From the IMG/VR virus record IMGVR_UViG_3300017598_000874: a stretch of 41,872 nucleotides of DNA; one strand, written 5' to 3'. The stretch comes from a virus. This document shows, piece after piece, positions 7,172-25,526 of the stretch. The notes under the pieces are model-generated. The model ran no database searches and was not told where the DNA came from. It was given only the letters and a program-made list of their open reading frames with translations. Made by a program: the position numbers and the translations under genes. Positions within the stretch are counted from its first letter, which is position 1. Every line of letters starts with the position of its first letter.

Positions 7172-7196
7172 CGAAAAAGATCAGGGGCTGGATGCT

Positions 7197-7407: not shown

Positions 7408-7408
7408 C
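7364..7408 (+). repeat. family-A leader, left half (copy 2a)
   Basis: CCAACGACAACCATGAGGCTGAAGAGCCGAAGGAGAAACAATGAC. Confidence 0.9.
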
Positions 7409-7556: not shown

Positions 7557-7605
7557 CTGACACAAAAAAGCGTGACGGCCTTGATAGCCTCGATTCGCTG
7601 GTTCG
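7535..7605 (+). repeat. family-A leader, right part (copy 2b)
   Basis: AGAGCCGAAGGAGAAACGATGACTGACACAAAAAAGCGTGACGGCCTTGATAGCCTCGATTCGCTGGTTCG. Confidence 0.9.
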
Positions 7606-7819: not shown

Positions 7820-7871
7820 GGGCGAACGCCACCGATGAGGCTTTGCCAAAACAACAAAAGGAGAATGACCA

Positions 7872-8141: not shown

Positions 8142-8173
8142 CAGACAACGAAAACAATGAGGGGCGGATTGCC

Positions 8174-8239
8174 CCAAAGGAGACTACAGATGAGCGATAA
8201 AAACGCGGCGGGGCAAGACGTACCTTCCATTGACTGGTT
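8174..8239 (+). repeat. family-B leader, copy 2 (66 bp perfect)
   Basis: Identical to 7197-7262. Preceded by the hairpin GGGGCggattGCCCC. Confidence 0.95.
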
Positions 8240-8402
8240 GGAAGTAGATATTCTTTCTGTTGATTTTGAAACAAACGAAATGGTTCTGATTCTACCAAAA
8301 GAAGTGGTGGCGCGTGGATTTCACGCCGGAAAAGTTAAGGTTGATCTTTCGGGCGTACAACGTACTTCCAACGACAAGGTGAACCGTGAGCGTAGCGAAT
8401 AG
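8190..8402 (+). CDS. hypothetical protein, family-B N-terminus
   Basis: ATG 8190 lies inside the 66-bp perfect repeat 8174-8239. The 3' end runs into a CCAACGAC box. Confidence 0.5.
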   Translation: MSDKNAAGQDVPSIDWLEVDILSVDFETNEMVLILPKEVVARGFHAGKVKVDLSGVQRTSNDKVNRERSE

Positions 8403-8452
8403 GCTCCACTTTCTGGTTAGGCGAACACTAAACACAAACAAAGGAGACGACA

Positions 8453-8671
8453 ATGAAAGACCAAGTACTGAAAATTGTAAAAAACGCACTCGCAGGAACC
8501 GAAGACAACCTTTACCGCGCAAACATGCAGTTTGGGCGAATGACTCCAGAACAATTAAAAGGCGAATACGGGCAGTCCGGCGAAACGTGCGGAAAGATTA
8601 TGCAGGGCTACAGAGACGAAAACGAAAAACTGAAACAGTGCGTGGCATGGGTCGAGGACTGCCCCGCCTAA
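8453..8671 (+). CDS. hypothetical protein
   Basis: SD aaaggaga. A CTGGTTAG box lies 33 nt upstream of the ATG. Confidence 0.55.
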   Translation: MKDQVLKIVKNALAGTEDNLYRANMQFGRMTPEQLKGEYGQSGETCGKIMQGYRDENEKLKQCVAWVEDCPA

Positions 8672-8763
8672 CGACAAGATAACCAGCGGGAAAACCGCGA
8701 AGGGGTCAAGATGAAGGATAAAATTTCGGGCGGTTTTCACCGTATGGTTCATTTTCTGGTTAG
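8668..8763 (+). repeat. family-C leader, copy 1 (96 bp perfect)
   Basis: CTAACGACAAGATAACCAGCGGG...CATTTTCTGGTTAG, identical to 38158-38253. Confidence 0.95.
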
Positions 8764-8887
8764 CTTCCGCGCTGGAAGATTGAACGACATCAACATCTTT
8801 GAGGTGATATTGCTTTCGGCAATCGTTGGATCATTGCTTGGGGCTATCATTTACATGGGATTCCTTGAGTTAATCAAGGGAAGCTAA
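8711..8887 (+). CDS. small membrane protein (58 aa), family-C N-terminus (MKDKISGGFHRMVHFLVS)
   Basis: Read by hand. Begins inside the 96-bp perfect repeat. C-terminal TM segment VILLSAIVGSLLGAIIYMGFL. Confidence 0.5.
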   Translation: MKDKISGGFHRMVHFLVSFRAGRLNDINIFEVILLSAIVGSLLGAIIYMGFLELIKGS

Positions 8888-8923
8888 CGACAAAGTGAGT
8901 CTCCGAGGCTCGAAAGGACACAA

Positions 8924-9250
8924 ATGAAAAAAGCATCTGAAATTTTTGAAGACCAAAGAGGTTCGGCGTTTGCTGAATGCGTTGCGGAGCCGAAGGTAGA
9001 TTCTATGGCTGGTTCGATTCCAGTATTTACGGAAAAAAACTTAAGGGAGTGCTCTTTTTTGGCAGAGGGAACGGTGTTTGTTTCCGAGCATAACGACCCG
9101 CTCAAATACTGGGTAGAAATCGCGTTCTGTCGAAGCGTTGGGGTTTTCTTCCAAAAGAAAGACGCTGTCGAGTACGCAGAATTTATCAAATCGAACAGAG
9201 GTATAGATATAAAAAGTACATCTACGCAGATATTAAAGAGGAAAAGATGA
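8924..9250 (+). CDS. hypothetical protein
   Basis: SD aaagga. Contains GAGCCGAAGG and CTGGTTCG (9009-9016) repeat fragments. The 3' end is read through family-D copy B. Confidence 0.5.
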   Translation: MKKASEIFEDQRGSAFAECVAEPKVDSMAGSIPVFTEKNLRECSFLAEGTVFVSEHNDPLKYWVEIAFCRSVGVFFQKKDAVEYAEFIKSNRGIDIKSTSTQILKRKR

Positions 9251-9252
9251 CT
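9188..9252 (+). repeat. family-D leader, copy B (upstream of the SleB-like hydrolase)
   Basis: AAATCGAACAGAGGTATAGATATAAAAAGTACATCTACGCAGATATTAAAGAGGAAAAGATGACT. Confidence 0.9.
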
Positions 9253-9624
9253 ACTGGACTATTACTTGCATTAACTATCTGGCTAGAAGCGCGGGACGAA
9301 CCCTTTGAGGGAAAACTTGCCGTGGCTCAGGTTGTCATGGAGCGGGTGGCGGACAGCCGCTGGCCTGATACTGTCAGAGAAGTAATCCTGCAACCGAAGC
9401 AGTTCACCTGCTGGAACGGGCGGACACCATCGACAGCGCAGGTTCCGGCACAGCCTGATGAGGCATGGACGGCCTGCTGCGCCGCCGCAAGAGCGGTGCT
9501 TATGGACTCTGTGTTTCCGGACGGCTTCAATCATTATTATAATCCGAAGCGTTGCTCCCCGCTGTGGGCAAAAAGGGCCAAACGCACCATAAAAATCAAC
9601 AACCACTTATTTTTAGAATTATGA
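9247..9624 (+). CDS. SleB/CwlJ-family cell-wall hydrolase (endolysin candidate)
   Basis: TIWLEARDEPFEGKLAVAQVVMERV...QPKQFTCW...HYYNP...INNHLF matches the Hydrolase_2 (SleB) domain pattern EARGE..G..AVA.V..NR...QP.QF...YyNP...gnH.F. Confidence 0.9.
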   Translation: MTTGLLLALTIWLEARDEPFEGKLAVAQVVMERVADSRWPDTVREVILQPKQFTCWNGRTPSTAQVPAQPDEAWTACCAAARAVLMDSVFPDGFNHYYNPKRCSPLWAKRAKRTIKINNHLFLEL

Positions 9625-9672
9625 CCGCCCCTTTTTTAAACACACTTAATCACAGACGGAGATTGAGACAAA

Positions 9673-9792
9673 ATGAAAAACAAGACTACGAAAAGTCGGA
9701 GGGTTAGCTTGATTGATGTTATTGGGCTATCAATTTTGATTGCCGGAATAATCGCCGTTGTGGAGATTCTGCGGATTATTTACACAAGCTAA
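9673..9792 (+). CDS. small single-TM protein (39 aa), holin-like candidate
   Basis: Read by hand: MKNKTTKSRRVSLIDVIGLSILIAGIIAVVEILRIIYTS. Lies directly downstream of the hydrolase. Confidence 0.4.
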   Translation: MKNKTTKSRRVSLIDVIGLSILIAGIIAVVEILRIIYTS

Positions 9793-10993: not shown

Positions 10994-12148
10994 TTATTCT
11001 CCGGTTAATTGTGTCTTAAACGCGGCAAAATCGGTAATTCCAGAAATCCCCACAGACTTTCCTTCTGTCATAGACTCCAAAATGTCGGCCATCAATGTTG
11101 GAGAGACAGTTAAATTTTTGTGTGTAGTTGAATCAGGCAATATCCACTTCGACCAACAAGATTTATAAACGGTTTCACCCTGACCGGGAATTTGATAGGG
11201 GTTGTTGCCGAAGAGCCGATTCGTTTCATTCACCAGCCCCACAGGGCAAAGGATTGCCACGCCGCCACTGTTTTTGGTTGGCCTGATGTGTGCAGCATTA
11301 TCAAAATCTAAATAGAATGTATCTGTATCATTTACCCACGTATCGAAACGCGGGATGTAATCTCTGGCTTCAACTTTACCGTTCTCGTAAATTTTGAGCA
11401 GACATATGCTCATGCCATCCTCAGCAGTCGTTCCCCAAAGAGGAATGTTGGGTTTAACCATGTGGACAATTGACTCATAATGGGCTGATACACGATTATA
11501 ATGGGAGTGATTATGTCCCATTACCGTCATTTTAATATTGGGGTGTTTTGCAATTACGCGGGAGCGAAACCCTTCCATATCCGCATCCACAGTTTGTCCG
11601 TCAACCAGAAAATAAGAGTGCGTTACAATTATACCAACCGCATTAGGGTTTGCAGTAAGAAGGGTGTTCGCCCACGTCTCAACCTCTGTTCTCGGATTCA
11701 TCTCCACACAAATAAACAGATAATCCCTGCCTTGGACAGCCAGCTTGTAAGCAACATTATTAATGTCCCCCTCTTTATACGCCCCTGCAAAATAAGATTT
11801 ATTTTCATAGCGGGAAGATGGGAATTCTTCATGCAAATAGGTGACACGACTGTTTGGCAGTTCAGCTTCCCCTCCAACCATATCGTGATTGCCCGTAGCA
11901 ATTAAAAATGGAACCTCCGCTTCCTCTATCGGCAAAAGAATATTCTTAGCCGCCGCGTTTACAATGCGGTGGAAAGATGCCGGACTGTTGTATTGCGCAT
12001 TTGACACGTCCCCCACGTGAACTACGAGTTGAATATTCTCAGCAACAATGTTATCCGCAACCCACTCTGCCATGAGCCGTTCGGTTTCCGCATCGGAGCC
12101 GTGACTGTAGTGCGTGTCGGGGATCAGAGCCAGTGTCCAATATTCCAT
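10994..12148 (-). CDS. calcineurin-like metallophosphoesterase
   Basis: Motifs in order: LIPDTHYSHG (DxH), HVGDVSN (GD), TGNHDM (GNHD), IVTHSY (H), VMGHNHSH (GHxH). Confidence 0.85.
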   Translation of the reverse strand: MEYWTLALIPDTHYSHGSDAETERLMAEWVADNIVAENIQLVVHVGDVSNAQYNSPASFHRIVNAAAKNILLPIEEAEVPFLIATGNHDMVGGEAELPNSRVTYLHEEFPSSRYENKSYFAGAYKEGDINNVAYKLAVQGRDYLFICVEMNPRTEVETWANTLLTANPNAVGIIVTHSYFLVDGQTVDADMEGFRSRVIAKHPNIKMTVMGHNHSHYNRVSAHYESIVHMVKPNIPLWGTTAEDGMSICLLKIYENGKVEARDYIPRFDTWVNDTDTFYLDFDNAAHIRPTKNSGGVAILCPVGLVNETNRLFGNNPYQIPGQGETVYKSCWSKWILPDSTTHKNLTVSPTLMADILESMTEGKSVGISGITDFAAFKTQLTGE

Positions 12149-14766: not shown

Positions 14767-17700
14767 TTACCCCTTTCTTTCCCACGGCGCTTTTTGTTTC
14801 TTCTTTTTCTTTCTGCCCAGCCCGCTAATATACTCGCGCCCTTCTTCAGTACTGTAAACTCCGTAAATCAGAGCTTTAATCGCATCATCATTTTCAATGC
14901 TAAAGAGCTTCTTCCCTGCCACATCCTGTACTTCTCCGCCCTCTGCAACAGCAGAAAGAACATCAATTATGCGGGCATAGCTTGCCCCTCCACCCATTCC
15001 AAGAGTTGCCAATCCGTAAGATGCCGCCCATTTATAAACACGCTTCGGATTTTTATGTTCAGCCAAATCATAAACACCTGCGAACAAATTATCAAAATTG
15101 CGTAACAGGTCGGGCCGGGTTTCTTTATAGTGAGCAAACCGTGTTACAGGCCCGTATTTTCTCAAGAATTTTCCAATCTCTTCATCTGCCTTAAAATGTT
15201 CTGCCAGAAAAGCGTTTATTTCAGCATCAATAATATCTCCCGCATACGGAACAAAAGTTCCTGCCGTATAATAAGAGCGGCCCGTCAACCACTTCATAAA
15301 TGCAGAAATAACCGTGGCCGACATTGCCAGCCATAAAGCCCGCAACATTCTTTCTTTTACACTTAACGGCACCCCCAGCCCCATAATGGTTTTTGCATGA
15401 TTCATTGCTGTAACAGCAAAAGTCTGATGGCTTGACAACATTTTTAAAACATCCGAGTTCTGAATAAATCCGCGAGTTTCCCGACGATAATTGGATTGAG
15501 TTTCCGCACCAATAATATCAGCATATAAAGCAGCTCTTTCACCCTTCATTCCCATTTGCTGTGCTTTATAATTCATGCCGATTACAGAAGCCCGCGTTAA
15601 ATACCGCTCTACAAAAGTTGCCCCCTTATTCAGCATTTCATTAAATACTTCTATAAATGAAAGACGGGAGCCAGAAACATCTTTAACCTCCGTTGCGCCA
15701 TATAACGGCCCGTAAATATCAGAGCGTTTCATGGTTTCAAACGGGCCGTAATCACCCATATTTTCAGTGGTCGGCTGTGCTGCTAAAAGAAGCCCCCTGA
15801 AGAAGTTAATCGGCCCTGAACTGCTTATTGAAAGCCCTCCTGAAGTCCATTGTGTACCAAGCATGAACCCTGCATTTCCAACCAGGTGCGCCCGAACTCG
15901 CACACCCTGCCATTCCCGCATTAGCTTTTGCGCTTGTGAACCAACCTCAATGTTCATTCCAGAATCAAGTTTGCTTATATCACCAACAAGAGCCTCTTCA
16001 ATATATCGCTTCCAATATCCGTTATATTTCGGAAACCCTCTTGTTCCATCTTCCCGATAAACTTGACGTAATGCCTGCCGATACAAATTGATTTTGCGAA
16101 TCGCAGGAGAAATATAGGCATGATTTATCAGCTTATGAAGGTGAGCATACATCTGATTAAAATAGTTTTCCTGCTTTGCTCTGGTCTTAAAAGCCTCCGC
16201 CCAATACTGCTGATCACTACGCATAAGCTCATAGCGTGATTTTACATCTATATTGTGTCGCTCAATCAAATCTTCTATGAAAAGAAGAGATTCTTTAATG
16301 AAAACTACATCCTGCTGATCTTCTGCGGCAAATTCTTCAATCGGATTTTTCCGCAACATATCCAGCCCGTATTTATCAGATACAGCATAAAGCTGTTCAT
16401 TTGCAGATTTGCTATACGGGTTCATGCCGTGTTTACGGTACAAATCAGCCAAAATTCCTTCTTCGGTAAACAGTGCCGTGTTTTTATTGTTTACCGCTTC
16501 TACGGTAGGAATCGCCACGCCCTCTGTAGCCCCGCCAAACCCGTTTTCCACATTATCAAACTTCAACGCCTGCAATCCAACGTGTTCCGTTGAACTGTTG
16601 GTATCTTTTTGATTAACACGGGCATATAAATCCGTCATTGCAAAAACTTGATTTTCATCCAATTCCTGCAAATTGACCGTAACACCTGATGCATCAGCAT
16701 CCCGCAATACTTTTTCAGCCGCCTCGATTTTCTGCTTCGCGTCTTTGAGTTTTGTTTGATCTTCTTCTGACAAAAGCCCGGCAACTCCCTCATACCGCTT
16801 AATCAACGTCAGTCCTTCAGCCAATTCTCCAACATTGATTTTATCAGCCAGCTCTACAATTTTGGCTTTATGTTCAAGACGTGCCAGCCCTTGGAAGTAT
16901 TGCTTTACAACCGCCAAAGAATCCGTGTTATACACTTGCGGAGAAACATCCTTTTTACGGGAAACCATACTTCCAAATTTCAGGTCTTCTTTTTGAAGAA
17001 TCCAATCTGCATCTATTTCTTCTTCACTCATATATCGGTCAGCTTTACGAAGCGGAAAAAAGTAATCACCCCTGGGATTAAACCGGTCTCCGGTAATTGC
17101 TGCCGCATGAACAATTCTGTCCCGCAAAAGGGGCCGTATCTGATGCCAACGATCATAAAAAGATTTTGCCCGAGAAGACAGATCGACTCCTTCAGTCATT
17201 TCCAAAAACTGAATCTGTTCAGCGGTCAGATCTTCTGTTTTAAGTTGATTAAGCTGATCTCGCAAAGTTTTTTCAAATATGCTTTGAACATCATCGTCTG
17301 TCAGTAAAGAAAGAATAGCCCCAAACTCTGCATTAAAAGCCTGCTCGCCGCGCAAATTCAACTCAGTATTGAGTATTTCTAAATCTTCATCACGGATTCT
17401 ATCAAACGGAAGGATTCTTTCTGCGGGATAAGAAATATCCTCAGCGGGTATTGTCGCAATTTCCTGTGTAGGTTTGGCGGGATCGAAATTAACCACCTGC
17501 TCATTATAGCGGGCAAGTGCTGCCGCATCACCACGAATGGCTTTCTTGAAATTTTCCTGCTGTTCACTTGGTTTATACATCAGGTCAGCATCTTCGTCGG
17601 AGAGAGTTTCTCCTAGATGCTTGGCTTCTTGCGGGGTCAGAACCTCGGTGAACGCGTGACGGGTAGCAGGAGCCTCTTGGGAGGTGGGTTTGGCAACTAT

Positions 17701-20700
17701 CGGCATAATATTAGCAGACTCATCGGTGTATTCCTGTATTTGAACCCACTTGTCGCCAACCCTAACCTCGATGTTCTTTGGGGAAACAGCTTGCGTGGAA
17801 ATGTAATCACCCCCATCGTTGCTTACATCAGACACCATTGTGTCCGTCTGTTTTGTTCTTAACAGTCGCCCGTTTTTTCTGGTCGCATATGACTCGCCAT
17901 AAACCTCCGTGTCTGCAAAATAGTTTTTATCTCCCGTTAAACCTTCTTCTCTTATTCTTCGGAACGCCCCCTCGCTAGTCCCGTGATAAACCCACGCCAC
18001 ATCCTTCGCCCCCTCTTTAGCAGGAGCCTCTTGGGAGGTGGGTTTGGCTTCGCGAATAATGTCTTTATCTAAAACAATATACGAATCGCTTTCTGTCTTT
18101 CCCTCGTACTCATTTCTGTAAATAATGGAGTCATAACCCATTTCAAGAAACGTGTCTCTAACGACCTTTGCCGAATCTCCGCTTGATACACGACTTTCAA
18201 AAAATGTTTTTTCAGCTTCGGTCATCCCAGTTTCGTCTGAATATTTTTTCCCGCCATACTCCAGCTTTCCACGAATCGCCAAAAGATACTGGTCTGCAAC
18301 ATTCCAATCGGAAATGTCTGGCAATCTGAGCGTTTTCTTCGGGGTTATGGTGCGGGAATAAACCCTTCTGCCAAGCCCTTTTTGAACGCCAATTCTGTGA
18401 GTTGCGACCTCTTCTGTTCCAAAGTGTACGCCAATATCGCCCTTTTCAACATCGAACGATGTTATTGACTCGTCTCTTGAGCCGTGGAATACATCAAGCC
18501 CCTCTTTAGCAGGAGCTTCTTGGGGGGTGGGTTTGATTTCTGGCGAGACGTAAGTTTTCGACCCATCGTCATTAACTATCTCTGTCCACCCTTCACTCGT
18601 GCGTTGCTTGATAATGTTTTCAAGAACCTTTTTAAAAACGGGAAGCCCCTTGGCCTCTGGAGACACGGTAAAGGAAATTACATTGTCTAGCAGGTTCTTT
18701 CTGGTCGGAAACGGTGCTATAAACTCAGCAGACCCTTGCTCTATGTGGTGATCCCACCCAGGAAGGTTTTTGTTTATCCGCAACATCATGTCATTAGGAG
18801 CGCGCATCTCAATCAAAACGCCAGTGTTTTCTTTCTGTCCAAGAGCCAAATCCTTGTTGTTTGAGAAGAACAGTTCTCCTGCAATTTCACCGCTTGCCCT
18901 GTCGTCAATAAACTCTAAAGATCGCTCGATGTTTGTCTGACGAAATAGCTTATCCGTAAAGGTGCTGGCTGGTTCAAGGAACTCGCTTTTCGATTTTATG
19001 ACCCCGTTTTCTCCAATCTTTGGCATCTCCCCCTCTTTAGCAGGAGCCTCTTGGGGGGTGGGTTTGTACTCACCGCTTCGGCTAAACGGGAAGGGAACCA
19101 TGTCTCCGTTTTCTGTCTCTAGCATTGTGGGGAAGTCTTTTACATAGTCAAAGCTTTTCGGGTTATCCTGCTCGCCCCATCTTATCGAAGGGCCATCTCC
19201 CGTATCAGACTTGACCACAACTGGTATGGTTTTTACGCCAAGCTCTTTTAGAGCCATTGCTCTGTGCCTGCCCTCATGCGACATAATGCTTACCGACTCT
19301 CCCATGTTTTCAAAACGCAAATACGGCAAACTTTCAAAACGTGTTTCAGATGAAAGAAGGTCTGATACCGTTTTTTCTTTCGTCTGGTCTTTTACGGGCA
19401 GATGTTCTGCCATGTTTAGAAAATCATCAATTGGCATCCGAACAAGAGTCTCTCTTGATTTTGGATTTTGATTTGATGCTCGCTCGATTTCTGTTTGGTC
19501 AAAGTATTTGTCGCCATCTCCCCCCTCTTTAGCAGGAGCCTCTTGGGTCTCAACCATAGACTCAATTTCATCAGCCAAATGCTCCTCAACAACCTCTTGG
19601 GCTGTCTCCTGCGGGCTCTCCGACTCAACAATGCGCTCTGCATACTCTGGAGACTTCTCACCAAATAACGGTTCTATCTGCTGTGTAATCCGCTTCTTTG
19701 CCACCTCTGCATCCACATCCTGAGCAAATGCTGTGATAGAGGAGCCAAGCGCACCAAGTAATGCCCCGGCCCTCGCATTCGCCCAAAATTCAACAGGTTC
19801 AATCTCTTTATTTAAAAGCTTCTGAAGCAAAACATACTCAAACCCCTCCTGTCCACCCTCGGTAACAGACCCAAGAGCAGCTTGGGTCGCTGTTTTAGCA
19901 AGCACCCGTAGCGCAGGAGATGATAGCTTGCCGCCAATGCCACGAAGCGGTCTGAATACGCCACCAATCACCAAGTCTGAAAGAACCGCCGTCGGAGCCG
20001 CTACAGCCGTATAAATACCGGCAGCGTCATGAGCATCACCGTCAGAAAGACCGTCATCTTTGGCTTGGGAGAACGCCTCGTTGTAGTACATCCCGATGTT
20101 GATTGGCACAGAAGCAGATAAGCCGCCGATAAATGAACCGGAAGCCCTTGTTCCGCCAGCCAAAACCGATAACGATCCGCCAAACAAACCAGCTCCCGCG
20201 ACTACAGGAATAATAGATAGCAACTGACCGCCGCCGGATGTCCACACCGAGTTCAACGCATCTTCGTGAGCCACCTCATCAAACATCCCCTTTTCGGACA
20301 TAACGTTGTACAGGTCATTTCCATATTCAGTCTGATAATCACCCATATTCATAAAGAAGTCATAGGAAGGACTGTTTTCTCCATTCTTGGAGTAGTTTCT
20401 CACCAACCCAGCAATCATCTTGTTTCCACCGGAGGCGGTATGCCAAACGTGCTTTGCGGTATGCCCTGATAAAGCCCTCATATAATCCCCGAAAGTCGCT
20501 TTATCATTAATCTCAAGGCTCATTGGGTGGGCATCGGTCTGTGCTATTTTATAGGTATTGCGAAGGGATCGAACCGCCGAAGTATAGGAAGCATTTTCTC
20601 CAAAATCAGCACGAACCCGATTGGCTACGGCTTCATCACTCAATTCAGTGCCGTTCTTGTAAGAGTAATAGTTTTTAAGAAGAACGTGAGAATGAGTTTC

Positions 20701-20877
20701 ATCATCAGCTTCAACAATCTGTTTTGGAATAGAAAGAATGCTTGCTTCTGCTGTTTGCGGATTAAATGCAGAGGCATTCACCCTGCCGGAGTTAATTAAT
20801 GTAGAGCGCAATTCTTCTTGCGTTGTCCCGTCAGGGATATTTTGTACAAGCGTGCCATTTGGAAGCCTAATATCCAT
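14767..20877 (-). CDS. giant internal virion/ejection protein with polyvalent architecture (2036 aa)
   Basis: Occupies the position of T7 gp16 after two smaller internal proteins. Gly-rich hydrophobic segments in the N-terminal region. Five KPT(P/S)QEAPAKEG linkers delimit cassettes. The C-terminal region of about 965 aa has hydrophobic segments and a KKKKKQK tail. Confidence 0.8.
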   Translation of the reverse strand: MDIRLPNGTLVQNIPDGTTQEELRSTLINSGRVNASAFNPQTAEASILSIPKQIVEADDETHSHVLLKNYYSYKNGTELSDEAVANRVRADFGENASYTSAVRSLRNTYKIAQTDAHPMSLEINDKATFGDYMRALSGHTAKHVWHTASGGNKMIAGLVRNYSKNGENSPSYDFFMNMGDYQTEYGNDLYNVMSEKGMFDEVAHEDALNSVWTSGGGQLLSIIPVVAGAGLFGGSLSVLAGGTRASGSFIGGLSASVPINIGMYYNEAFSQAKDDGLSDGDAHDAAGIYTAVAAPTAVLSDLVIGGVFRPLRGIGGKLSSPALRVLAKTATQAALGSVTEGGQEGFEYVLLQKLLNKEIEPVEFWANARAGALLGALGSSITAFAQDVDAEVAKKRITQQIEPLFGEKSPEYAERIVESESPQETAQEVVEEHLADEIESMVETQEAPAKEGGDGDKYFDQTEIERASNQNPKSRETLVRMPIDDFLNMAEHLPVKDQTKEKTVSDLLSSETRFESLPYLRFENMGESVSIMSHEGRHRAMALKELGVKTIPVVVKSDTGDGPSIRWGEQDNPKSFDYVKDFPTMLETENGDMVPFPFSRSGEYKPTPQEAPAKEGEMPKIGENGVIKSKSEFLEPASTFTDKLFRQTNIERSLEFIDDRASGEIAGELFFSNNKDLALGQKENTGVLIEMRAPNDMMLRINKNLPGWDHHIEQGSAEFIAPFPTRKNLLDNVISFTVSPEAKGLPVFKKVLENIIKQRTSEGWTEIVNDDGSKTYVSPEIKPTPQEAPAKEGLDVFHGSRDESITSFDVEKGDIGVHFGTEEVATHRIGVQKGLGRRVYSRTITPKKTLRLPDISDWNVADQYLLAIRGKLEYGGKKYSDETGMTEAEKTFFESRVSSGDSAKVVRDTFLEMGYDSIIYRNEYEGKTESDSYIVLDKDIIREAKPTSQEAPAKEGAKDVAWVYHGTSEGAFRRIREEGLTGDKNYFADTEVYGESYATRKNGRLLRTKQTDTMVSDVSNDGGDYISTQAVSPKNIEVRVGDKWVQIQEYTDESANIMPIVAKPTSQEAPATRHAFTEVLTPQEAKHLGETLSDEDADLMYKPSEQQENFKKAIRGDAAALARYNEQVVNFDPAKPTQEIATIPAEDISYPAERILPFDRIRDEDLEILNTELNLRGEQAFNAEFGAILSLLTDDDVQSIFEKTLRDQLNQLKTEDLTAEQIQFLEMTEGVDLSSRAKSFYDRWHQIRPLLRDRIVHAAAITGDRFNPRGDYFFPLRKADRYMSEEEIDADWILQKEDLKFGSMVSRKKDVSPQVYNTDSLAVVKQYFQGLARLEHKAKIVELADKINVGELAEGLTLIKRYEGVAGLLSEEDQTKLKDAKQKIEAAEKVLRDADASGVTVNLQELDENQVFAMTDLYARVNQKDTNSSTEHVGLQALKFDNVENGFGGATEGVAIPTVEAVNNKNTALFTEEGILADLYRKHGMNPYSKSANEQLYAVSDKYGLDMLRKNPIEEFAAEDQQDVVFIKESLLFIEDLIERHNIDVKSRYELMRSDQQYWAEAFKTRAKQENYFNQMYAHLHKLINHAYISPAIRKINLYRQALRQVYREDGTRGFPKYNGYWKRYIEEALVGDISKLDSGMNIEVGSQAQKLMREWQGVRVRAHLVGNAGFMLGTQWTSGGLSISSSGPINFFRGLLLAAQPTTENMGDYGPFETMKRSDIYGPLYGATEVKDVSGSRLSFIEVFNEMLNKGATFVERYLTRASVIGMNYKAQQMGMKGERAALYADIIGAETQSNYRRETRGFIQNSDVLKMLSSHQTFAVTAMNHAKTIMGLGVPLSVKERMLRALWLAMSATVISAFMKWLTGRSYYTAGTFVPYAGDIIDAEINAFLAEHFKADEEIGKFLRKYGPVTRFAHYKETRPDLLRNFDNLFAGVYDLAEHKNPKRVYKWAASYGLATLGMGGGASYARIIDVLSAVAEGGEVQDVAGKKLFSIENDDAIKALIYGVYSTEEGREYISGLGRKKKKKQKAPWERKG
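17665..17694 (-). repeat. linker repeat 5 (KPTSQEAPA)
   Basis: agcaggagcctcttgggaggtgggtttggc. Confidence 0.9.
17695..18010 (-). other. cassette 4: second ART/Tpt1-like module
   Basis: VAWVYHGTSEGAFRRIREEGL...NYFADTEVYGESYA. YHGT + I..eGL is typical of H-type ART/KptA folds. Confidence 0.45.
18011..18047 (-). repeat. linker repeat 4 (KPTSQEAPAKEG)
   Basis: ccctctttagcaggagcctcttgggaggtgggtttggc. Confidence 0.9.
18048..18499 (-). other. cassette 3: ADP-ribosyltransferase-like (ART-PolyVal-like) module
   Basis: LDVFHGS...GVHFGTEEVA...DSIIYRNEYEG. This layout is recalled from polyvalent-protein ART domains and is unverified. Confidence 0.45.
18500..18535 (-). repeat. linker repeat 3 (KPTPQEAPAKEG)
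   Basis: ccctctttagcaggagcttcttggggggtgggtttg. Confidence 0.9.
18536..19030 (-). other. cassette 2: uncharacterised, possibly R-type ART-like
   Basis: LFRQT...GELFFSNNKDLALGQ parallels the YHGT...YFADTE layout of cassettes 3 and 4, with R replacing H. Speculative. Confidence 0.25.
19031..19066 (-). repeat. linker repeat 2 (KPTPQEAPAKEG)
   Basis: ccctctttagcaggagcctcttggggggtgggtttg. Confidence 0.9.
19067..19522 (-). other. cassette 1 of the giant protein: ParB/Srx-like (ParBc nuclease-like) domain
   Basis: MSHEGRHRAMALKELGVKTIPVVV (nt 19213-19278) resembles the ParB/sulfiredoxin core DGxHRxxAaxxlGxxxiPv. Confidence 0.55.
19523..19547 (-). repeat. linker repeat 1 (QEAPAKEG)
   Basis: Plus-strand cctctttagcaggagcctcttggg, shared with the four other copies. 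Confidence 0.9.
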
Positions 20878-22437
20878 TTACTTCGCTTTTGGTAATGAAT
20901 TAAAATCAATTACATTTTCTTGCCGTGGAGCTGTTCCGGGTGCCGTTATCTGCCCAAAAATGCGGAGTTGTCTTCCTGTCATTAACGAGGCATTGCGAAG
21001 CTCTGTGCTTTTAGTATCCGCAAGATTTCCAAGTTCCCCGATACGTGCCTCCAGTGCGGACTGAACTTCTTCGTCAGTACCCGTTTTTCCTTTTTCCACC
21101 ATGCCCAGCATATCATCAATAAATGAAGTCCATATGCCAACTTCTCCAGAAGCCTTTACTGCACTCGTATAAGCATTATAAAGACGATCATATTCTTTTG
21201 CGGTAAACTTCCGTTTCTCTTTGTCCAGAGGAAGACTGGTTTTGCGCTCTGAAACAATATACTCAATAATCGCCGCTTTTTGCTGTTGATTTAAAGCATT
21301 TGACGCAGAAACATCTTCAATAGTCTGATCAACATCTTCGGGATTTCCCCCAAACCAACGAAGTGATCCTGTCATATTTTTAATACGTTTCGCTAATCCC
21401 TGATTAGTCCTTGCAAGAACTTTGATTCCCTCATTACGAGCATCTCGAAGTTCAGACTTGTTTTCAAAGCTCCCCGTCTCGGTACGCTCATAAATTTCAG
21501 CAATAGGCCCGGTATTTGCAATGTTTTCAAGCCACGCCGCCGCATCAGGGATGTTGGCTTCAATTTGCCCGCCAATCTGGTCAACAACTCCGGTAACATC
21601 TTCGCCCTTCCCGATAGCATCAGCAATTTTTCCGATAAGCCCCCACGACTCTGTTATCATTTTGTTTTTAAGGGCGGCAGAAGATTTTTTAACAGCCGCA
21701 TACTGTGCAGGAGTCAAATGAGCCTTGATTTTATCAAGACTTTCTTCAAAATTAACTACTTGCGGAACATTCTGAAGCTCAGATAAAGCTCCTATTGCCG
21801 CACTGTAAGTTCCTTCTGTACGATACCGCTCAAGCTCTTCAGGAGAAATCAGCCCCTCCATCTGCATCAATACTTCATCAGACTGTTCAGATAAAGCGAG
21901 ATATTGATCTTCATCTCCGGCAAGGTAAGCATCTATTGCTTCTTTGCGAATTACGTCAGCCTCACTCTTAATTCCCACCACCGCCTTCTGCATGGCAAAA
22001 TGATTCCCTTCTTTATGCCACGCGGCCTGTTCATAGGCCGATCGCTCTCGATGATAAAGCTGGAAGTCATCAAGAGCCCTCTTAGAGCCGCGCCAGCTTT
22101 CAATAAGTCCGCCCTCCCAGTCCTTCATGCTCTCTTCCATGAAAGCGGCTTTATGCTCCGGTGTTTTATCACTAAATCCAAAATTTCTTTCGTCCGGCGG
22201 CTTTGCCATTTCAGCATCAAATCCAGAAGAAAGAGCATTTGTTTTTTCAAGACGGGCCACTTTAGCTTCAGACAAAAACCCCTGATCCTTAAACTCCCCG
22301 ATCTTCGCCACCATCTGCCCAACATTCTGCACCTGCCCGCCTAACTCACCAAGCGCAGAGGCTACAGGGTCAGACCCCTGTAATTTTACCGTTCCGTCAA
22401 GCCGGGCCGGTTGCTGTTCATAAGTTGGTATTGCCAT
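20878..22437 (-). CDS. internal virion protein (gp15-position)
   Basis: Position between the small internal protein and the giant protein. Helical and acidic. Its stop abuts the next start. Confidence 0.55.
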   Translation of the reverse strand: MAIPTYEQQPARLDGTVKLQGSDPVASALGELGGQVQNVGQMVAKIGEFKDQGFLSEAKVARLEKTNALSSGFDAEMAKPPDERNFGFSDKTPEHKAAFMEESMKDWEGGLIESWRGSKRALDDFQLYHRERSAYEQAAWHKEGNHFAMQKAVVGIKSEADVIRKEAIDAYLAGDEDQYLALSEQSDEVLMQMEGLISPEELERYRTEGTYSAAIGALSELQNVPQVVNFEESLDKIKAHLTPAQYAAVKKSSAALKNKMITESWGLIGKIADAIGKGEDVTGVVDQIGGQIEANIPDAAAWLENIANTGPIAEIYERTETGSFENKSELRDARNEGIKVLARTNQGLAKRIKNMTGSLRWFGGNPEDVDQTIEDVSASNALNQQQKAAIIEYIVSERKTSLPLDKEKRKFTAKEYDRLYNAYTSAVKASGEVGIWTSFIDDMLGMVEKGKTGTDEEVQSALEARIGELGNLADTKSTELRNASLMTGRQLRIFGQITAPGTAPRQENVIDFNSLPKAK

Positions 22438-22446: not shown

Positions 22447-22920
22447 TTATGCAAAAAATTCTGAAATACGAGTACCCGAATTTAACAAACTGCCAAATGC
22501 CCCGATTCCTCCCGCTATACGAGAACGTCCAGCCTGTTGCTTCTGAAACTTTCCCTGTATTCTGGACTGGGCGGCCTGAAACCTCCCTCTAAGCCTCACG
22601 TTGATAGCATCCAGTTCATAGGCCTCAATAGTGTCTGCCATGACCTCAAGGGGCGTTCCGGACATCCTAACCCCCGCCTTGGCGTAACGAGTGCGCTGCG
22701 TGCCTATTAAGGCCCTCCCCTGTCGTCGTATATACTTAGCCTGCTCATCAGCATTCATTATGCTGATCTGAGCATCTATCCTGCTTTGCCGGGCATTAAA
22801 ATCACCAAGATCGCCCTGAAACTGACCTTGCTGATATTGCCCAAAGGCGGAAAAAAGCCCCCCTGTGGCAGTCAGTCCGGAACCCCATTTCTGATAACTT
22901 GTTGCATTTTCAAACATCAA
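22447..22920 (-). CDS. small internal virion protein (gp13/14-position)
   Basis: ATGA overlap with the nozzle gene. Gln/Gly/Arg-rich 157 aa. Confidence 0.5.
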   Translation of the reverse strand: MMFENATSYQKWGSGLTATGGLFSAFGQYQQGQFQGDLGDFNARQSRIDAQISIMNADEQAKYIRRQGRALIGTQRTRYAKAGVRMSGTPLEVMADTIEAYELDAINVRLRGRFQAAQSRIQGKFQKQQAGRSRIAGGIGAFGSLLNSGTRISEFFA

Positions 22921-25526
22921 TCCATCCCCGTTGCATCTAAATACAGACTGATAGAAAGAAGTTCAAGCGGTACAGGTTTGTCACTAACTATCCAAAATTC
23001 CGGCGAACGCGTAGTCGGAGCAATAGAGTTTAAGTCTTCAAAATAATCTCCATCCAGCCACGGTTCTGTAAGAGTAACCTCCTGAGTCCACAAACTGTTT
23101 GTATCGACTCCGTATTTAAATGTCCCTGAATTATTTACTTTATAAACTACTTTTTTAAGTGTCTTGGGATAAGAATAAGTAAATGAATCATTTCCGATAA
23201 CTTCAATGTGCATTGGACTTACCCGTGCAGTAAACGGCAGTCCGGCAATAACTCTTGAGTTCGTAGTGGAAAGGGTTATTACCCCGTTAGTGGAAACCGT
23301 TACATTTGTGTGTACTGTCCCGTCAGCCAAAACCGACACATCCTGTCCGGATAAATGCGTCAGGTTGGAAAAAGTGGATTTTGCCGCTCCATCATAATCA
23401 AGTCCGCTATCTACAAACCACGCATCCTCATCATCACTTCCCCAATCTAAGGGAGTAAACCATTCTATGAACCGCCCGTTTATGCGATTCACAACTAAAT
23501 ATACCCGATCTTCCCCTGAAGAGGGAATTACTGCTGCGCTCTCAAAATCTCCATCTGTAGTATGTCGATGCCATCCGTAAACATTTTGCTCTTTGTTATA
23601 GGTCAGCCCCGCTAATATCCCATCATCGCGAACAAACCAAATAATCGGCTGTGGCTGCTGCTGTTCAGCATATTGTATAATTCCAGACTCAGTAATATGC
23701 TCTGCAAGAAGCGTAGTATCATTAGACTTATATTTGTCAGCTTCTAAACTAAACTCAAATTCACGAACCTTCCGTCCCTGTCGCTGAACATAAATTACAT
23801 TTTCAGCAGCAAGTAAAGCCCCAAGCCCATCCTGAGAACCATAAGAGCTTTGTCGCCGGGCTTTAACTGTTTTGAAATTCAATGGAGTCGCATCGTCCCC
23901 TCCGGAAATAATCCATTCACTGCCAAGAGTCCCGATATAAAGCTGATCACGTCCGATCATCCATAAAACTACATTGTCGGAATTGATTTCAAACTGTAAT
24001 CCATCATCATCATTTAAACCCAACTCAAAATCATCATAAAGATCAGTTTTTGATCCCCAAATAGTATTTACTTCATACTCAGTATTCCCAAGCATCAATC
24101 GGTTTTCGTAAAACTCACAAGAACGGGGATGTCCCCGCTCGTCAGAAAATGCCGCTTCAGACCATTTTGCTGTTTCATTTGTGGATACAATCCCATGAAC
24201 AGAGTCTACTGTCCCTGTCACAACCGTCGAGGAAGCGAAACCGGTTATTTCCACTAAACCGTTATGCCAAGGCTCATGAACAGTAAAAGTTAAAACACAA
24301 TAATTATCATGAGATGGAGTTTCTTCATCAAAACGAACCCGATAAAAAACATCATTTTCCGTTTCCGTTCCTGATCTTTCATAACTTTTATACAAGTCTG
24401 AATCTTTATCGTTAAAATATTGACGAAGAACCGCCCATGATTCTCCATCATCATCAGATACTTCTAAGTAAGCCACTCCTGTCCATTTTTGTCTGCCGGA
24501 AACAACAAACTCCCAATCTCCTTTTACTGAAATAGAATCACTCGTAAAATCATTTTTACCTTCAATATAAAGCACATTGTTTGTTCTGGGATGAGAAATC
24601 TCCCACACAGACCCAATATGATCTTCTGTAAAGATTTCTTCAGAAGATGTAATGATTACCCCTCCGGCAAACTCATTCAAAAGTCCGAAAATCACACCAT
24701 TTGTCTTGGTAGAAAAAGTTACGCTTGTTCCTGTCCATCCGGTTGCTTCGTCTGGAAAATCCGTATCATCTGTAGAATACTGCAATTCTCCATCTCCGGG
24801 CCATTCATAGATTTGCCATTTATCATTATTCCACCGAACGCTATATCCAGATTTCTCATAGCGGGGCTTTCCATTCTGCATGTGGTCATATTCATACAAT
24901 CCATCTGCTCCCGAATCATCACAATCGAGTGTAAAATAATATAAAGAACCAAAAGGCGCTACTTGCAAAGTATGATCACTGTCATCATTTTCCTTTAAAA
25001 GCGGAGGATAGTCCCACTCAACCTTCTCCATTATAAATGTGGGATCAGTAGTTTCTCTGGTCAGTTTATAAACAGGATAATCAGGATGGGTAAAATACAT
25101 TTCATTTGCAAATTGTGCTGTTTGAAAAGTAAATACATCATTACTTGAATAAGGAGTAACAACCTCAACTGGAACAGAACTGGTTTGAATCTGAACTCCA
25201 TCCGCATAAAATCTGATATATTCATGGCCGGCCTCAAGAATGTATGACTGATCAACTCCTATACTCATAGAAATCAGCCGTGCCACACCACTGTTCTTTG
25301 TTTCGGCTATATATTGCGTTCCGCTTCGTTTTTGCACCCCTCCATAAGGAAGGCAAATCATATTCTCTAATCGCCTGCACCCGCTTTTATATTTTTTAAA
25401 GTCAATGCGGGCATTAATATGCGGAGAAAGCTCGCCGCCATTAAATGTATTTAAGACAACAAGCTCGGATTGTGCAACAAACACCCCGAATGCCGCGCCA
25501 AGCAAAATGGCAACATAAGATTTCAT
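22917..25526 (-). CDS. tail tubular protein B / nozzle-like protein with hydrophobic N-terminal extension
   Basis: LNTFNGGELSPHINARIDFKKYKSGCRRLENMICLPYGGVQKRSGT parallels the T7 gp12 N-terminus (IKNLKGGISQQPDILRYPDQG...GLQKRPP, from memory). 869 aa. TAATG coupling fixes the start, so MKSYVAILLGAAFGVFVAQS is translated. Confidence 0.65.
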   Translation of the reverse strand: MKSYVAILLGAAFGVFVAQSELVVLNTFNGGELSPHINARIDFKKYKSGCRRLENMICLPYGGVQKRSGTQYIAETKNSGVARLISMSIGVDQSYILEAGHEYIRFYADGVQIQTSSVPVEVVTPYSSNDVFTFQTAQFANEMYFTHPDYPVYKLTRETTDPTFIMEKVEWDYPPLLKENDDSDHTLQVAPFGSLYYFTLDCDDSGADGLYEYDHMQNGKPRYEKSGYSVRWNNDKWQIYEWPGDGELQYSTDDTDFPDEATGWTGTSVTFSTKTNGVIFGLLNEFAGGVIITSSEEIFTEDHIGSVWEISHPRTNNVLYIEGKNDFTSDSISVKGDWEFVVSGRQKWTGVAYLEVSDDDGESWAVLRQYFNDKDSDLYKSYERSGTETENDVFYRVRFDEETPSHDNYCVLTFTVHEPWHNGLVEITGFASSTVVTGTVDSVHGIVSTNETAKWSEAAFSDERGHPRSCEFYENRLMLGNTEYEVNTIWGSKTDLYDDFELGLNDDDGLQFEINSDNVVLWMIGRDQLYIGTLGSEWIISGGDDATPLNFKTVKARRQSSYGSQDGLGALLAAENVIYVQRQGRKVREFEFSLEADKYKSNDTTLLAEHITESGIIQYAEQQQPQPIIWFVRDDGILAGLTYNKEQNVYGWHRHTTDGDFESAAVIPSSGEDRVYLVVNRINGRFIEWFTPLDWGSDDEDAWFVDSGLDYDGAAKSTFSNLTHLSGQDVSVLADGTVHTNVTVSTNGVITLSTTNSRVIAGLPFTARVSPMHIEVIGNDSFTYSYPKTLKKVVYKVNNSGTFKYGVDTNSLWTQEVTLTEPWLDGDYFEDLNSIAPTTRSPEFWIVSDKPVPLELLSISLYLDATGMD

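Follow-up and report, generated by a model that had tools for sequence, protein, structure and literature searches.

A putative gp16-type ejection protein of a phage carries an array of polyvalent effector-like cassettes

A giant gene at the gp16 position

The phage genome analysed here (IMG/VR record IMGVR_UViG_3300017598_000874; 41,872 nt, hereafter the window) encodes on its minus strand a 2036-aa protein that begins with an ATG start codon and spans positions 14767..20877. The initial annotation had reported an open reading frame of this length at this locus without noting its strand, and every motif quoted there is found in the translation: MSHEGRHRAMALKELGVKTIPVVV at aa 532, LFRQT at aa 644 and LFFSNN at aa 669, VFHGS at aa 796, HFGT at aa 818 and IIYRNEYEG at aa 918, and VYHGTSEGAFRRIREEGL at aa 963 with YFADTEVYGESYA at aa 986. 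The ATG directly follows the TAA of an upstream 519-aa gene without a family match (20878..22437, minus strand). Read along the minus strand, the genes are ordered as tail tubular protein A, tail tubular protein B (22917..25526; phrog_376, E=1e-161), a gp14-like internal virion protein (22447..22920; phrog_418, E=1.7e-26), the 519-aa protein at the gp15 position and the 2036-aa gene. This arrangement corresponds to T7 gp11-gp12-gp14-gp15-gp16, in agreement with the T7 gp16-type position originally proposed, and the same late-operon order is present in the distant relatives HTVC203P and KL4. Other genes of the phage specify an exonuclease and a protein resembling Holliday-junction resolvases.

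Four cassettes occupy the middle of the protein, and the surrounding scaffold contains the hydrophobic N-terminal and C-terminal regions described earlier. An N-terminal region (20257..20877, minus strand; aa 1-207), which over its first 40 aa shares 42% identity with the N-terminus encoded by its counterpart in a distant relative (IMG/VR contig L005), leads into Gly/Ala-rich hydrophobic region I (19708..20256; aa 208-390), with hydrophobic sequence at aa 208-316 (segments 208-263 and 284-316) and 366-390. Following the cassettes, a 965-aa C-terminal scaffold (14770..17664, minus strand; aa 1072-2036) contains hydrophobic region II (14944..15837; aa 1681-1978), which is moderately hydrophobic at aa 1681-1700, 1820-1866 and 1956-1978, and ends in a basic tail, RKKKKKQKAPWERKG (14770..14814), that is not conserved in L005. 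Homologue searches with this C-terminal scaffold were empty with every tool used, and comparison of the scaffold with gp16 families and all other proteins searched revealed no sequence similarity. Size and synteny, not sequence, are the usual basis for matching ejection proteins (PMC8954989), and the gp16 assignment here rests on position and crude hydropathy.

T7 gp16 is the inner-membrane component of the DNA ejectosome, a 1318-aa protein whose topology is described in PMC8954989. Like gp16, the 2036-aa protein follows gp14- and gp15-like genes, is the largest protein of the core block and is built from an N-terminal part, a first hydrophobic region, a long soluble part, a second hydrophobic region and a positively charged C-terminus. 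Hydrophobic regions I and II are positional counterparts of gp16 TMH I and TMH II, and gp16 requires its positively charged C-terminal residues (PMC8954989). Unlike gp16, the protein shares no sequence similarity with the T7 protein, lacks an N-terminal lytic transglycosylase domain and carries an array of enzyme-like cassettes of ~625 aa; its 2036 aa compare with 609-1337 aa reported for gp16-like proteins (PMC8954989), whereas the scaffold without the array measures ~1410 aa. Giant ejected podovirus proteins also include the N4-type virion RNA polymerase polyvalent proteins, which sometimes carry an ADP-ribosyltransferase (ART), as in Roseovarius Plymouth podovirus 1. In contrast to these, RNA polymerase motifs and family matches are absent here: as first noted, a regular-expression scan recovered neither DxDGD nor a T7-type motif, and the sole match to RNA polymerase families was a noise-level hit to Rpb1 domain 4 (E=0.017).

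Missing homology to known ejection proteins, together with the fibre-like neighbours of some cassette relatives (see below), could instead mean that the protein belongs to the tail, a fibre or another external part of the virion, or that it is a late protein outside the virion whose gene adjoins the core genes. We consider this improbable. The gene comes directly after those for the gp14-like and gp15-position proteins, with its start codon adjoining the stop codon of the latter; the two hydrophobic regions and basic tail resemble gp16, the protein contains no beta-helix, collagen or fibre signatures, and fibre genes in relatives come after the internal-protein block.

Four distinct cassettes

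The four cassettes are set off by the linker KPT(P/S)QEAPAKEG, whose five copies coincide with the limits drawn initially at residues 452-603, 616-780, 793-943 and 956-1061. Cassette C1 (19066..19512, minus strand; aa 456-604) belongs to a large family without a Pfam model that includes stand-alone proteins of ~165 aa and domains inside giant proteins. Nearly all of the 489 library matches below 1e-10 fall on C1, as do ~137 of the best 150. Its invariant HEGRHRA core (H534, R537 and R539) resembles ParB box II, and the three best matches of a C1 profile against the PDB are SbnI ParB/Srx domains (E=0.012), aligned over a DGxHR core. A comparison with the ParB domain of P1 DdrB found no similarity. 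The ParB/Srx-like assignment made at the outset is thus suggested, not proven, and the prediction for C1 is a ParB/Srx-type domain active in NTP binding, NTP hydrolysis or DNA nicking. Elsewhere, stand-alone C1 genes adjoin giant beta-helix (fibre-like) genes.

Cassette C3 (18046..18498, minus strand; aa 794-944) is the most readily classified. Phmmer matched it to domains called ART-PolyVal by Pfam with E values of 1e-16 to 1e-24, and a profile built from only six Pfam-verified ART-PolyVal domains scored 79 bits on aa 794-949. All invariant residues are kept, with C3 retaining H798, H818-F819, the GYD motif (D916), Y920, N922, E925 and D931. Sequence comparison therefore makes C3 a solid ART-PolyVal homologue, as expected for the VFHGS cassette. 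Cassette C4 (17692..18009, minus strand; aa 957-1062) is a mini ART-like domain with a putative H-Y-D triad (H965, Y986 and D1024), the configuration of ARTs in polyvalent proteins (Iyer et al., PMC5512222). All seven members of its family match ART-PolyVal weakly (best 2.4e-4), two match Tpt1/KptA and one matches PARP. A C4 profile matched eight distinct Tpt1/KptA chains in the PDB (best E=0.018), and Foldseek, run with a C4 model based on only 7 sequences, ranked PARP14 and Tne2 at the top, neither significantly. These weak and consistent matches agree with the ART-like nature proposed for this VYHGT cassette. Both C3, of the ART-PolyVal type, and C4, of the mini H-Y-D type, are predicted to be NAD+-dependent ADP-ribosyltransferases that may target a host protein or nucleic acid.

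Cassette C2 (18535..19029, minus strand; aa 617-781) represents a rare family with a WW-like C-terminal hairpin and invariant residues R646, T648, F671, A-x-GQ-x-x-N-x-GV and E718. Its AF2 model is confident (pLDDT 85.7) and a Foldseek search of that model against the PDB returned no significant match, so an ART-like fold is a weak lead; sequence comparison with T4 ModA and ModB also found no similarity. The LFRQT...LFFSNN cassette thus stays uncharacterized, as it was initially described, and is possibly an ART-like enzyme. C2-type domains also occur in BA3_0002, alongside LPD38 and a methyltransferase, and in P0095, alongside LPD38.

Compared directly with Pfam, the window's C1, C2 and C3 do not reach threshold, and C2 and C4 have no significant structural matches. 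Both observations would fit a core or ejection protein whose role is purely structural, with cassettes that are degenerate, non-catalytic spacers or binding modules adding only length or bulk. Against this unlikely reading, the protein keeps every family-invariant polar residue at an expected catalytic position (H798, D916 and E925 in C3; H965, Y986 and D1024 in C4; H534, R537 and R539 in C1; R646 and E718 in C2). Furthermore, the cassette domains occur as small stand-alone proteins in many phage contigs, which indicates that they can function alone.

A linker conserved at the nucleotide level

The linker copies lie on the minus strand at 19518..19558 (a half-site with only the 3' part, QEAPAKEG), 19026..19066 (KPTPQEAPAKEG), 18495..18535, 18006..18046 (KPTSQEAPAKEG) and 17652..17692 (a half-site with only the 5' part, KPTSQEAPA), placing QEAPA at aa 445, 609, 786, 949 and 1067. 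At the DNA level it forms a repeat family, with five near-identical copies of 36-46 nt within 1.9 kb; its 36-nt consensus occurs three times in the window at ≤1 mismatch, compared with 0 expected from 100 shuffles. The second copy is identical at 36/36 nt to a linker in L005, a distant syntenic phage contig whose blastn similarity to the window is confined to the linker. In L005, the linkers flank another ART-PolyVal cassette, 28% identical to C3.

Short repeats of this kind could lead a metagenome assembler to fuse cassettes from strain variants into an array that exists complete in no one phage, and L005 itself contains frame breaks, one of them in a G8 run of the linker. However, the 6.1-kb reading frame is unbroken, standard reads exceed the repeats in length, cassettes and scaffold are alike in G+C and GC3, the window ends in a 121-nt terminal repeat as for a complete 41.75-kb genome, and the protein record lists 3 contigs with identical sequence. 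An assembly artefact is accordingly very improbable.

Identity of the 36-nt linker without other DNA similarity suggests a recombination handle for cassette exchange. Most likely, the linker, which measures 36-41 nt around each cassette, acts as a short homology handle through which cassettes can be gained, lost or exchanged within a phage population; exchange is deduced from two genomes, because L005 is the sole contig besides the window that carries the linker. A competing explanation, which we regard as possible but doubtful, is that selection conserves the peptide and not the DNA, with KPT(P/S)QEAPAKEG serving as a required flexible spacer or as a protease site whose cleavage after injection would release the individual effectors. 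Four copies in the window and one in L005 encode the identical linker peptide, repeated junction peptides occur in other polyvalent proteins (WRFEIDDS seven times in P0066 and FDESKHVR three times in P0108), and processing of polyvalent proteins has been proposed by Iyer et al. (PMC5512222). Yet synonymous sites are equally conserved: 12/12 codons are identical between the window and L005 linkers, compared with a genome-wide baseline of 44% codon identity at conserved residues (P about 6e-5). The second L005 linker keeps the DNA while a compensated frameshift alters the peptide (SQE to SPK), and searches of the protein and its neighbours revealed no peptidase domain. The peptide and DNA readings are not mutually exclusive.

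A polyvalent protein in a probable ejection-protein scaffold

Homologues of the cassettes are domains of proteins of up to 5812 aa that carry Pfam ART-PolyVal and LPD38, the hallmarks of phage polyvalent proteins, in line with the polyvalent effector first proposed. Cassette homologies and scaffold topology together therefore identify the 2036-aa protein as a phage polyvalent protein in a gp16-type scaffold. We favour, with a probability of roughly 65%, the explanation that, in a podovirus whose structural module is of the T7 type, it is the largest ejection (internal-core) protein, a positional and topological counterpart of T7 gp16 into which effector cassettes have been inserted and can be exchanged through the linker. 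The four-cassette array is inserted just after the first hydrophobic region, which would correspond by analogy to the part of gp16 that ends in, and faces, the host cytoplasm. In such a model, the protein would be synthesised late, alongside structural proteins, and packaged in a few copies atop the portal; it would then leave through the tail ahead of the DNA, its two hydrophobic regions would enter the inner membrane and the cassette array would be exposed at the DNA entry site before phage gene expression.

The concept is already known from the polyvalent proteins of Iyer et al. 2017 (PMC5512222). As there, a giant late-operon protein combines several unrelated effector domains, H-Y-D ARTs and ParB/Srx-type domains are the commonest components, cassette homologues occur in ART-PolyVal/LPD38 proteins, and packaging and injection with the DNA are predicted. 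The carrier differs: MuF, portal, N4 vRNAP and DarA/DdrB proteins are described in PMC5512222, with gp16 and internal virion proteins unmentioned, whereas here it is a putative ejection protein that occupies the gp16 position and has two hydrophobic regions. Searches of this protein detected neither a zincin-like peptidase nor an LPD domain, and for three cassette families out of four (C1, C2 and C4) no Pfam model is reached. The nucleotide-conserved linker is a new feature relative to known polyvalent proteins, being undescribed in PMC5512222, where the word 'linker' has 0 occurrences.

Phage T4 Alt provides a precedent: this ART is packaged in the phage head, enters the host along with the DNA and modifies proteins there, host RNA polymerase among them, before phage genes are expressed (PMC5512222). 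Alt, from a myovirus, is a protein in its own right and falls in the R-S-E clade, whereas C3 and C4 are of the H-type clade and form part of a putative ejection protein. Among cultured podoviruses, Thalassomonas phage BA3 (NC_009990) encodes a giant protein, BA3_0002 (2631 aa), that carries LPD38 and a methyltransferase, unlike the window protein, and lacks C1, C3, C4 and the QEAPAKEG linker. Its gene likewise adjoins DNA-ejection and structural genes, and its aa 545-690 form a C2-type domain with 28% identity to C2 (BLASTP E=7e-7, Foldseek E=1.4e-9).

Genome setting of the 2036-aa protein

The gene for the 2036-aa protein is one unbroken open reading frame (ORF) with an ATG start at 14767–20877, exactly where the initial annotation had drawn it, and it is read from the minus strand. 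It belongs to a late operon that runs on this strand from ~35.3 kb down to 11 kb and begins with genes for large terminase, portal, major capsid protein and tail tubular A. Next come the genes for tail tubular B (phrog_376, E = 1e-161) and for a gp14-like internal virion protein (phrog_418, E = 1.7e-26). A 519-aa protein is encoded after these, and the TAA of its gene abuts the ATG of the 2036-aa gene, which is itself followed by genes for three further proteins. The operon ends with the gene for a calcineurin-like metallophosphoesterase (10994–12148, minus strand; Pfam Metallophos, E = 1.3e-9), three genes downstream of the 2036-aa gene. The 41,872-nt contig has a perfect 121-nt direct repeat at its two ends (1–121 and 41752–41872), which may be direct terminal repeats of the genome or an overlap from circular assembly and indicates that the genome is complete at about 41.75 kb. 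The early genes lie on the plus strand and encode an exonuclease (phrog_298, 136–924), a Holliday-junction resolvase-like protein (2673–3113), a DnaC-like helicase loader (3959–4609) and an endolysin (9247–9624), and the window has no polymerase-sized ORF. Early-gene content and T7-type late genes together show that this genome joins a lambdoid-type early region to a T7-type structural module.

Relatives of this structural module are distant. The nearest cultured phages by tail tubular B, which are the Pelagibacter HTVC203P group, Burkholderia KL4 and BcepC6B and Yersinia YeP4-6, share only 32–40% identity and carry the same internal-protein block between tail tubular B and the fibre genes. 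The structural module had no close relative by megablast, and an exact-sequence contig look-up with the window protein returned no record.

A probable ejection-protein scaffold at the gp16 position

Gene order and protein architecture both point to a T7 gp16-type ejection protein. The initial annotation placed the gene at the T7 gp16-type locus, and the late operon bears this out: gp14-like, gp15-like and gp16-like genes follow tail tubular B, with the 2036-aa gene directly after the gp14-like and 519-aa genes. A hydropathy scan divides the protein into an N-terminal part (aa 1–207), a Gly/Ala-rich hydrophobic region I (aa 208–390; segments 208–316 and 366–390), a long soluble stretch, a moderately hydrophobic region II (aa 1681–1978; segments 1681–1700, 1820–1866 and 1956–1978) and a basic C-terminal tail, RKKKKKQKAPWERKG. 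Two hydrophobic regions that flank a soluble part, together with a basic C terminus, are the architecture of gp16-type proteins (PMC8954989). T7 gp16 has a periplasmic N-terminal part, TMH I at 243–410, the cytoplasmic gp16-C at 411–1118, TMH II at 1119–1290 and, at the C terminus, five positively charged residues that are essential (PMC8954989). Without its cassette array of ~625 aa, the scaffold of the window protein measures ~1410 aa; T7 gp16 is similar in size, at 1318 aa. The array starts ~60 residues past hydrophobic region I, an insertion point that by analogy would correspond to the start of the portion of T7 gp16 that faces the host cytoplasm.

The scaffold differs from the T7 gp16 families in having neither sequence or profile similarity to them nor an N-terminal transglycosylase. 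Its N-terminal 445 aa and C-terminal 965 aa have no relative in Pfam, PHROGs or NCBIfam; no scaffold relative emerged from tblastn of the whole protein against GenBank phages or from peptide-pattern scans of IMG/VR and JGI metagenomes, and in a word-indexed search of a 5.8-billion-protein index the scaffold query matched itself alone. Comparison by BLASTP and phmmer with the internal proteins of HTVC203P, KL4 and Thalassomonas phage BA3 produced matches for the gp14-like protein alone and none for the big protein. When the N- and C-terminal parts were run with phmmer against the top 150 library matches to the array, one weak match appeared, to P0116 at aa 204–310. Because the scaffold is without detectable relatives, the gp16 role is assigned from synteny and architecture, by which most gp15- and gp16-like proteins are likewise recognised (PMC8954989). 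A search of the 2036-aa protein for RNA polymerase (RNAP) motifs was empty, in agreement with the initial reading. As such motifs are absent elsewhere, a weak Pfam match of the C-terminal scaffold to Rpb1 domain 4 (16525–16740, aa 1380–1451; E = 0.017–0.18) was judged to be noise.

An alternative that we considered is a virion protein that is not ejected; we assign a probability of about 70% to packaging of the 2036-aa protein into the core followed by its ejection. By analogy with T7 gp16, the odds that the cassette array is then exposed to the cytoplasm are about even. The array would sit within the T7-type gp14/15/16 ejectosome, the best-understood ejection machinery, in the part of the protein that is expected to be exposed to the cytoplasm, and this placement offers a concrete, testable delivery route.

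Four cassette families in one polypeptide

Five copies of the peptide linker KPT(P/S)QEAPAKEG, at aa 445, 609, 786, 949 and 1067, bracket four effector-like cassettes, C1–C4. The cassette limits guessed in the initial annotation coincide with these copies, and every motif that it quoted was found in place. A phmmer search with aa 452–1076 against 1.84 billion representatives gave 968 matches below 1e-3, including 489 below 1e-10, which were allotted to C1–C4 by local re-alignment. Searches by tblastn with the whole protein and with the array against 50,697 GenBank phage records and PLSDB plasmids recovered no C1, C2 or C4, their sole matches being weak and C3-type. Composition gave no evidence that the cassettes are foreign.

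C3 (aa 794–944) is an ADP-ribosyltransferase (ART) homologue. It matches regions of the library proteins P0120, P0019, P0066 and P0006 by phmmer (E = 1e-7 to 1e-12), and a Pfam scan identifies the regions in P0120, P0019 and P0006 as ART-PolyVal with 61–86 bits; C3 aligns to such domains at E = 1e-8 to 1e-12. C3 itself has no match to the ART-PolyVal model PF18760 (gathering threshold 31.2 bits) even at E ≤ 10, probably owing to an insert of ~45 aa. A profile of six ART-PolyVal domains, built with the window sequence left out, scores 79 bits on aa 794–949, and C3 keeps 19 of 19 invariant columns, including H798, H818, GYD916, Y920, N922 and E925. The proposal of an ART-like fold for this cassette is supported by homology to Pfam-verified domains and retention of their conserved residues.

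C4 (aa 957–1062) represents a small family with ~50% identity and the invariant elements YHGT-EG-FR-IR, Y-F, YA-RK, GD(Y/F) and IEV. All seven members match ART-PolyVal weakly (best 2.4e-4), two also match Tpt1/KptA and one the PARP catalytic domain, and the C4 profile aligns to eight different Tpt1/KptA chains in the PDB on the H-G-T strand (best E = 0.018). Invariant residues of the family include H965, Y986 and D1024, which form the H-Y-D configuration given for ARTs of polyvalent proteins (PMC5512222). The AF2 model, computed from seven sequences only, has a pLDDT of 78.8 and the expected beta-alpha-beta-alpha-beta start. Foldseek of this model ranks PARP14, Tne2 and PARP16 first, none of them significantly (best E = 0.6). 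Overall, C4 probably belongs to the ART superfamily, as the initial annotation proposed. Scanning GTDB genomes for C4 gave one true match, on a 5-kb MAG scaffold. The cassettes might serve as an inactive structural spacer, an alternative that we weighed against the conserved residues of C3 and C4; we lean towards catalytic competence for these two. The H-type ART cassettes might carry out new NAD+-dependent modifications of host protein, RNA or DNA.

C1 (aa 456–604) accounts for ~137 of the best 150 phmmer matches, at 40–50% identity, and its family comprises stand-alone proteins of ~165 aa as well as segments of proteins of up to 5812 aa. The core GHEGRHRA-x-AL-x(3)-G-x(4)-PV is fully or almost fully conserved and is followed by IRW-x-EQ and FDY. 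Searched against the PDB, a 57-sequence profile has as its top three matches the ParB/Srx domains of SbnI (E = 0.012–0.056), a ParB/Srx-fold serine kinase, with the alignment exactly on the DGxHR core; the motif also resembles ParB box II (GERRxRA). The ParB/Srx-like cassette of the initial annotation is suggested by the core motif and the SbnI matches. In Pfam, none of 30 members reaches any model, and a precomputed PF02195 flag on 2 of 78 relatives was not reproducible. Judged from sequence, C1 likely belongs to the ParB/Srx superfamily, and it may or may not, with similar chances, have an NTP- or DNA-directed activity. A DdrB-like ParB identity was rejected, as hhalign of the C1 profile with P1 DdrB gave P = 0.02 and aligned the wrong DdrB region (aa 491–625). 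Stand-alone C1 genes occur in other phage contigs, at 10001–10507 in L070/L071, 2720–3343 in L074 and 10001–10492 in L073. Twice they directly adjoin giant genes, one for a beta-helix protein of 4227 aa and the other for a protein of 2354 aa, and one is in a contig of 450 kb that also has a T4 rIIB-like gene and is probably from a jumbo phage.

C2 (aa 617–781) is rare, with six relatives among the top 150 matches and two more from the word-indexed search, and has no sequence match in Pfam or the PDB. Its AF2 model is confident (pLDDT 85.7, pTM 0.81). Foldseek of this model against the PDB found nothing significant; the best low-rmsd matches are KptA, Tpt1, Tne2 and ModA, the first three with probabilities of about 0.3 or less. 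Against BFVD the model matches A8HNV9_1 (E = 1.4e-9), which we take to be BA3_0002 because the 1315-aa chunk is half of 2631 aa and BLASTP aligns C2 to BA3_0002 aa 545–690 (28% identity, E = 7e-7). BA3_0002, a 2631-aa 'hypothetical protein' encoded at 1851–9746 in Thalassomonas phage BA3 (NC_009990), adjoins DNA-ejection and tail genes and also has LPD38 (E = 2.5e-46) and a methyltransferase domain. Its LPD38, methyltransferase and C2-type domains make it a polyvalent protein that has gone unannotated in a cultured phage, an isolate that experiments could use. P0095, another carrier of C2, likewise has LPD38.

R646, F671 and E718 are invariant in C2 and S672 is not; the order of the ART triad is kept (R646, F671–S672, E718). 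Alignment of C2 with C4 by hhalign gave P = 0.004 and paired LYRET with LYHGT and FFSN with YFAD. We treat an ART-like nature of C2 as a lead rather than a finding, its chances falling a little short of even. Comparison with T4 ModA/ModB gave no statistical signal (hhalign P = 0.54, Smith–Waterman z mostly <1.5), the R-S-E likeness being by eye only. The C-terminal end of the C2 family is a WW-like hairpin, GW-x(5-6)-DGS-x-x-Y-x-x-P (18535–18600, aa ~760–781), at which the AF2 model has two short strands and the C2 profile matches the PRP40 WW domain (E = 0.04).

A polyvalent protein on a probable ejection scaffold

Phage polyvalent proteins are operationally defined by two or more disparate effector domains in one polypeptide, domains typical of the class, a place among late or virion genes, and packaging in the particle for delivery with the DNA (PMC5512222). 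The 2036-aa protein combines four cassette families, each also known alone or in other architectures; C3 is an ART-PolyVal homologue and LPD38 occurs in proteins that share C2; and the gene lies in a terminase–portal–capsid–tail–core operon. With unrelated effector domains in one late-operon protein, ART and ParB-type components and predicted co-injection, it is a phage polyvalent protein under this definition. The polyvalent-effector interpretation, already put forward in the initial annotation, is supported by the four cassette families and is not a new idea. Three features set the window protein apart from those described: the carriers in PMC5512222 are MuF, portal, N4 vRNAP and DarA/DdrB, whereas the carrier here is a gp16-position ejection scaffold; it has no LPD and no MPTase or other peptidase domain by Pfam search; and three of its cassette families lie outside domain libraries.

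These three families, missed by the libraries, are now defined, and one has hundreds of phage-metagenome members. Injected proteins act before phage gene expression and are prime candidates for counter-defence and early host takeover. Polyvalent proteins were reportedly a computational prediction of 2017 that has since scarcely been put to experiment. The protein described here links polyvalent effectors to a T7-type ejectosome, and the conserved element at its junctions could be what drives the exchange of cassettes.

A linker conserved at the DNA level

At the DNA level the linker forms a repeat of about 41 nt (family D3), whose 36-nt consensus occurs three times in the window with at most one mismatch; shuffles are expected to contain none. 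The first copy consists of the 3′ half only and the last of the 5′ half only, and half-linkers at both ends fit the expectation for the edges of an inserted array. An assembly chimera at the repeats was considered as an alternative origin of the array. Scanning IMG/VR for DNA that encodes QEAPAKEG identified L005 (IMGVR_UViG_3300017613_000818), a distant syntenic relative in which tail tubular B is 28–53% and the gp14-like protein 32% identical to those of the window. The N terminus of the big gene shares 42% identity over 40 aa, and the C-terminal scaffold has no similarity. By blastn, the linker is the sole similarity between the two genomes (44/46 nt), and one L005 linker is identical at 36/36 nt to the window copy at 19030–19065. 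Two L005 linkers likewise bracket a cassette.

That L005 cassette is a different ART-PolyVal domain (Pfam 48.9 bits; 28% identity to C3), followed by another, unrelated cassette. Frame and linkers are thus kept and cassettes differ, an observation on cassette exchange that comes from two genomes only. In L005 the big gene (7024–9091) is broken up into overlapping ORFs, three in number, with 251, 455 and 1128 aa. The second of these breaks lies within eight consecutive G at a linker's 3′ end, where the window equivalents have 4–6 G and are in frame, and reflects either a sequencing error or homopolymer slippage.

Selection on the peptide, for example as a cleavage site, is a possible explanation of the linker that is compatible with a role of the DNA, and repeated junction peptides also occur in other polyvalent proteins. 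However, synonymous sites are kept as well. Residues conserved elsewhere between the window and L005 have only 44% identical codons, a baseline from which 12/12 identical linker codons have P ~6e-5 even given the identical peptide. The second L005 linker carries a compensated +1/−1 indel that changes SQE to SPK and keeps the DNA. A peptide-level linker scan of metagenomes gave 64 matches, all due to chance and with no extended identity. RNA structure at the linker was rejected (z-scores −1.1 to +0.8), as was an internal Shine–Dalgarno sequence and start codon for each linker, an in-frame start being nearby, by inspection, in only two of four copies. As neither explains the conservation, the most economical reading, tentative as it is, makes the linker a short homology handle whose uniformity is maintained by recombination or gene conversion. 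Linker length is within the range of phage annealing-type recombination systems, and the early genes of the window include one for an exonuclease and one for a resolvase-like protein.

Such a handle would make the cytoplasm-facing loop of the ejection protein an integron-like cassette array for injected effectors. Through short-homology recombination that employs the phage's own exonuclease and annealing functions, members of this lineage could acquire, drop and swap effector domains that act before phage gene expression, and the handle would be identical among phages otherwise diverged past DNA recognition. The bolder proposal of a dedicated recombination handle for trading effector cassettes, along with C2 as the first R-type ART in polyvalent proteins, is unlikely as it stands. 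A nucleotide-conserved linker in a very distant relative with other cassettes suggests how effector repertoires shuffle.

Repeated modules in the early region

Families of near-identical 44–100-nt modules lie at gene starts in the early region and resemble the cassette linkers in that short conserved junctions join unrelated modules in both. Repeat D1 (5199–5291, 7525–7617 and 38425–38517) comprises a ribosome-binding site and the first ~21 codons (MTDTKKRDGLDSLDEL...) common to three small ORFs. The D5/D6 repeat (2613–2676, 5970–6013, 9187–9250 and 39278–39341) is a promoter/leader, TATAAAT...AAAGAGGAAAAGATG, that precedes unrelated genes, among them the resolvase-like gene and the endolysin gene. 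Repeats D7 (8668–8766 and 38158–38256) and D8 (7170–7269 and 8147–8246) occur twice each. The divergent region that separates the late and early operons holds a 42-nt direct repeat with 88% identity (TTGGAGATAATAGTTGACC...), at 35495–35536 and 36946–36987.
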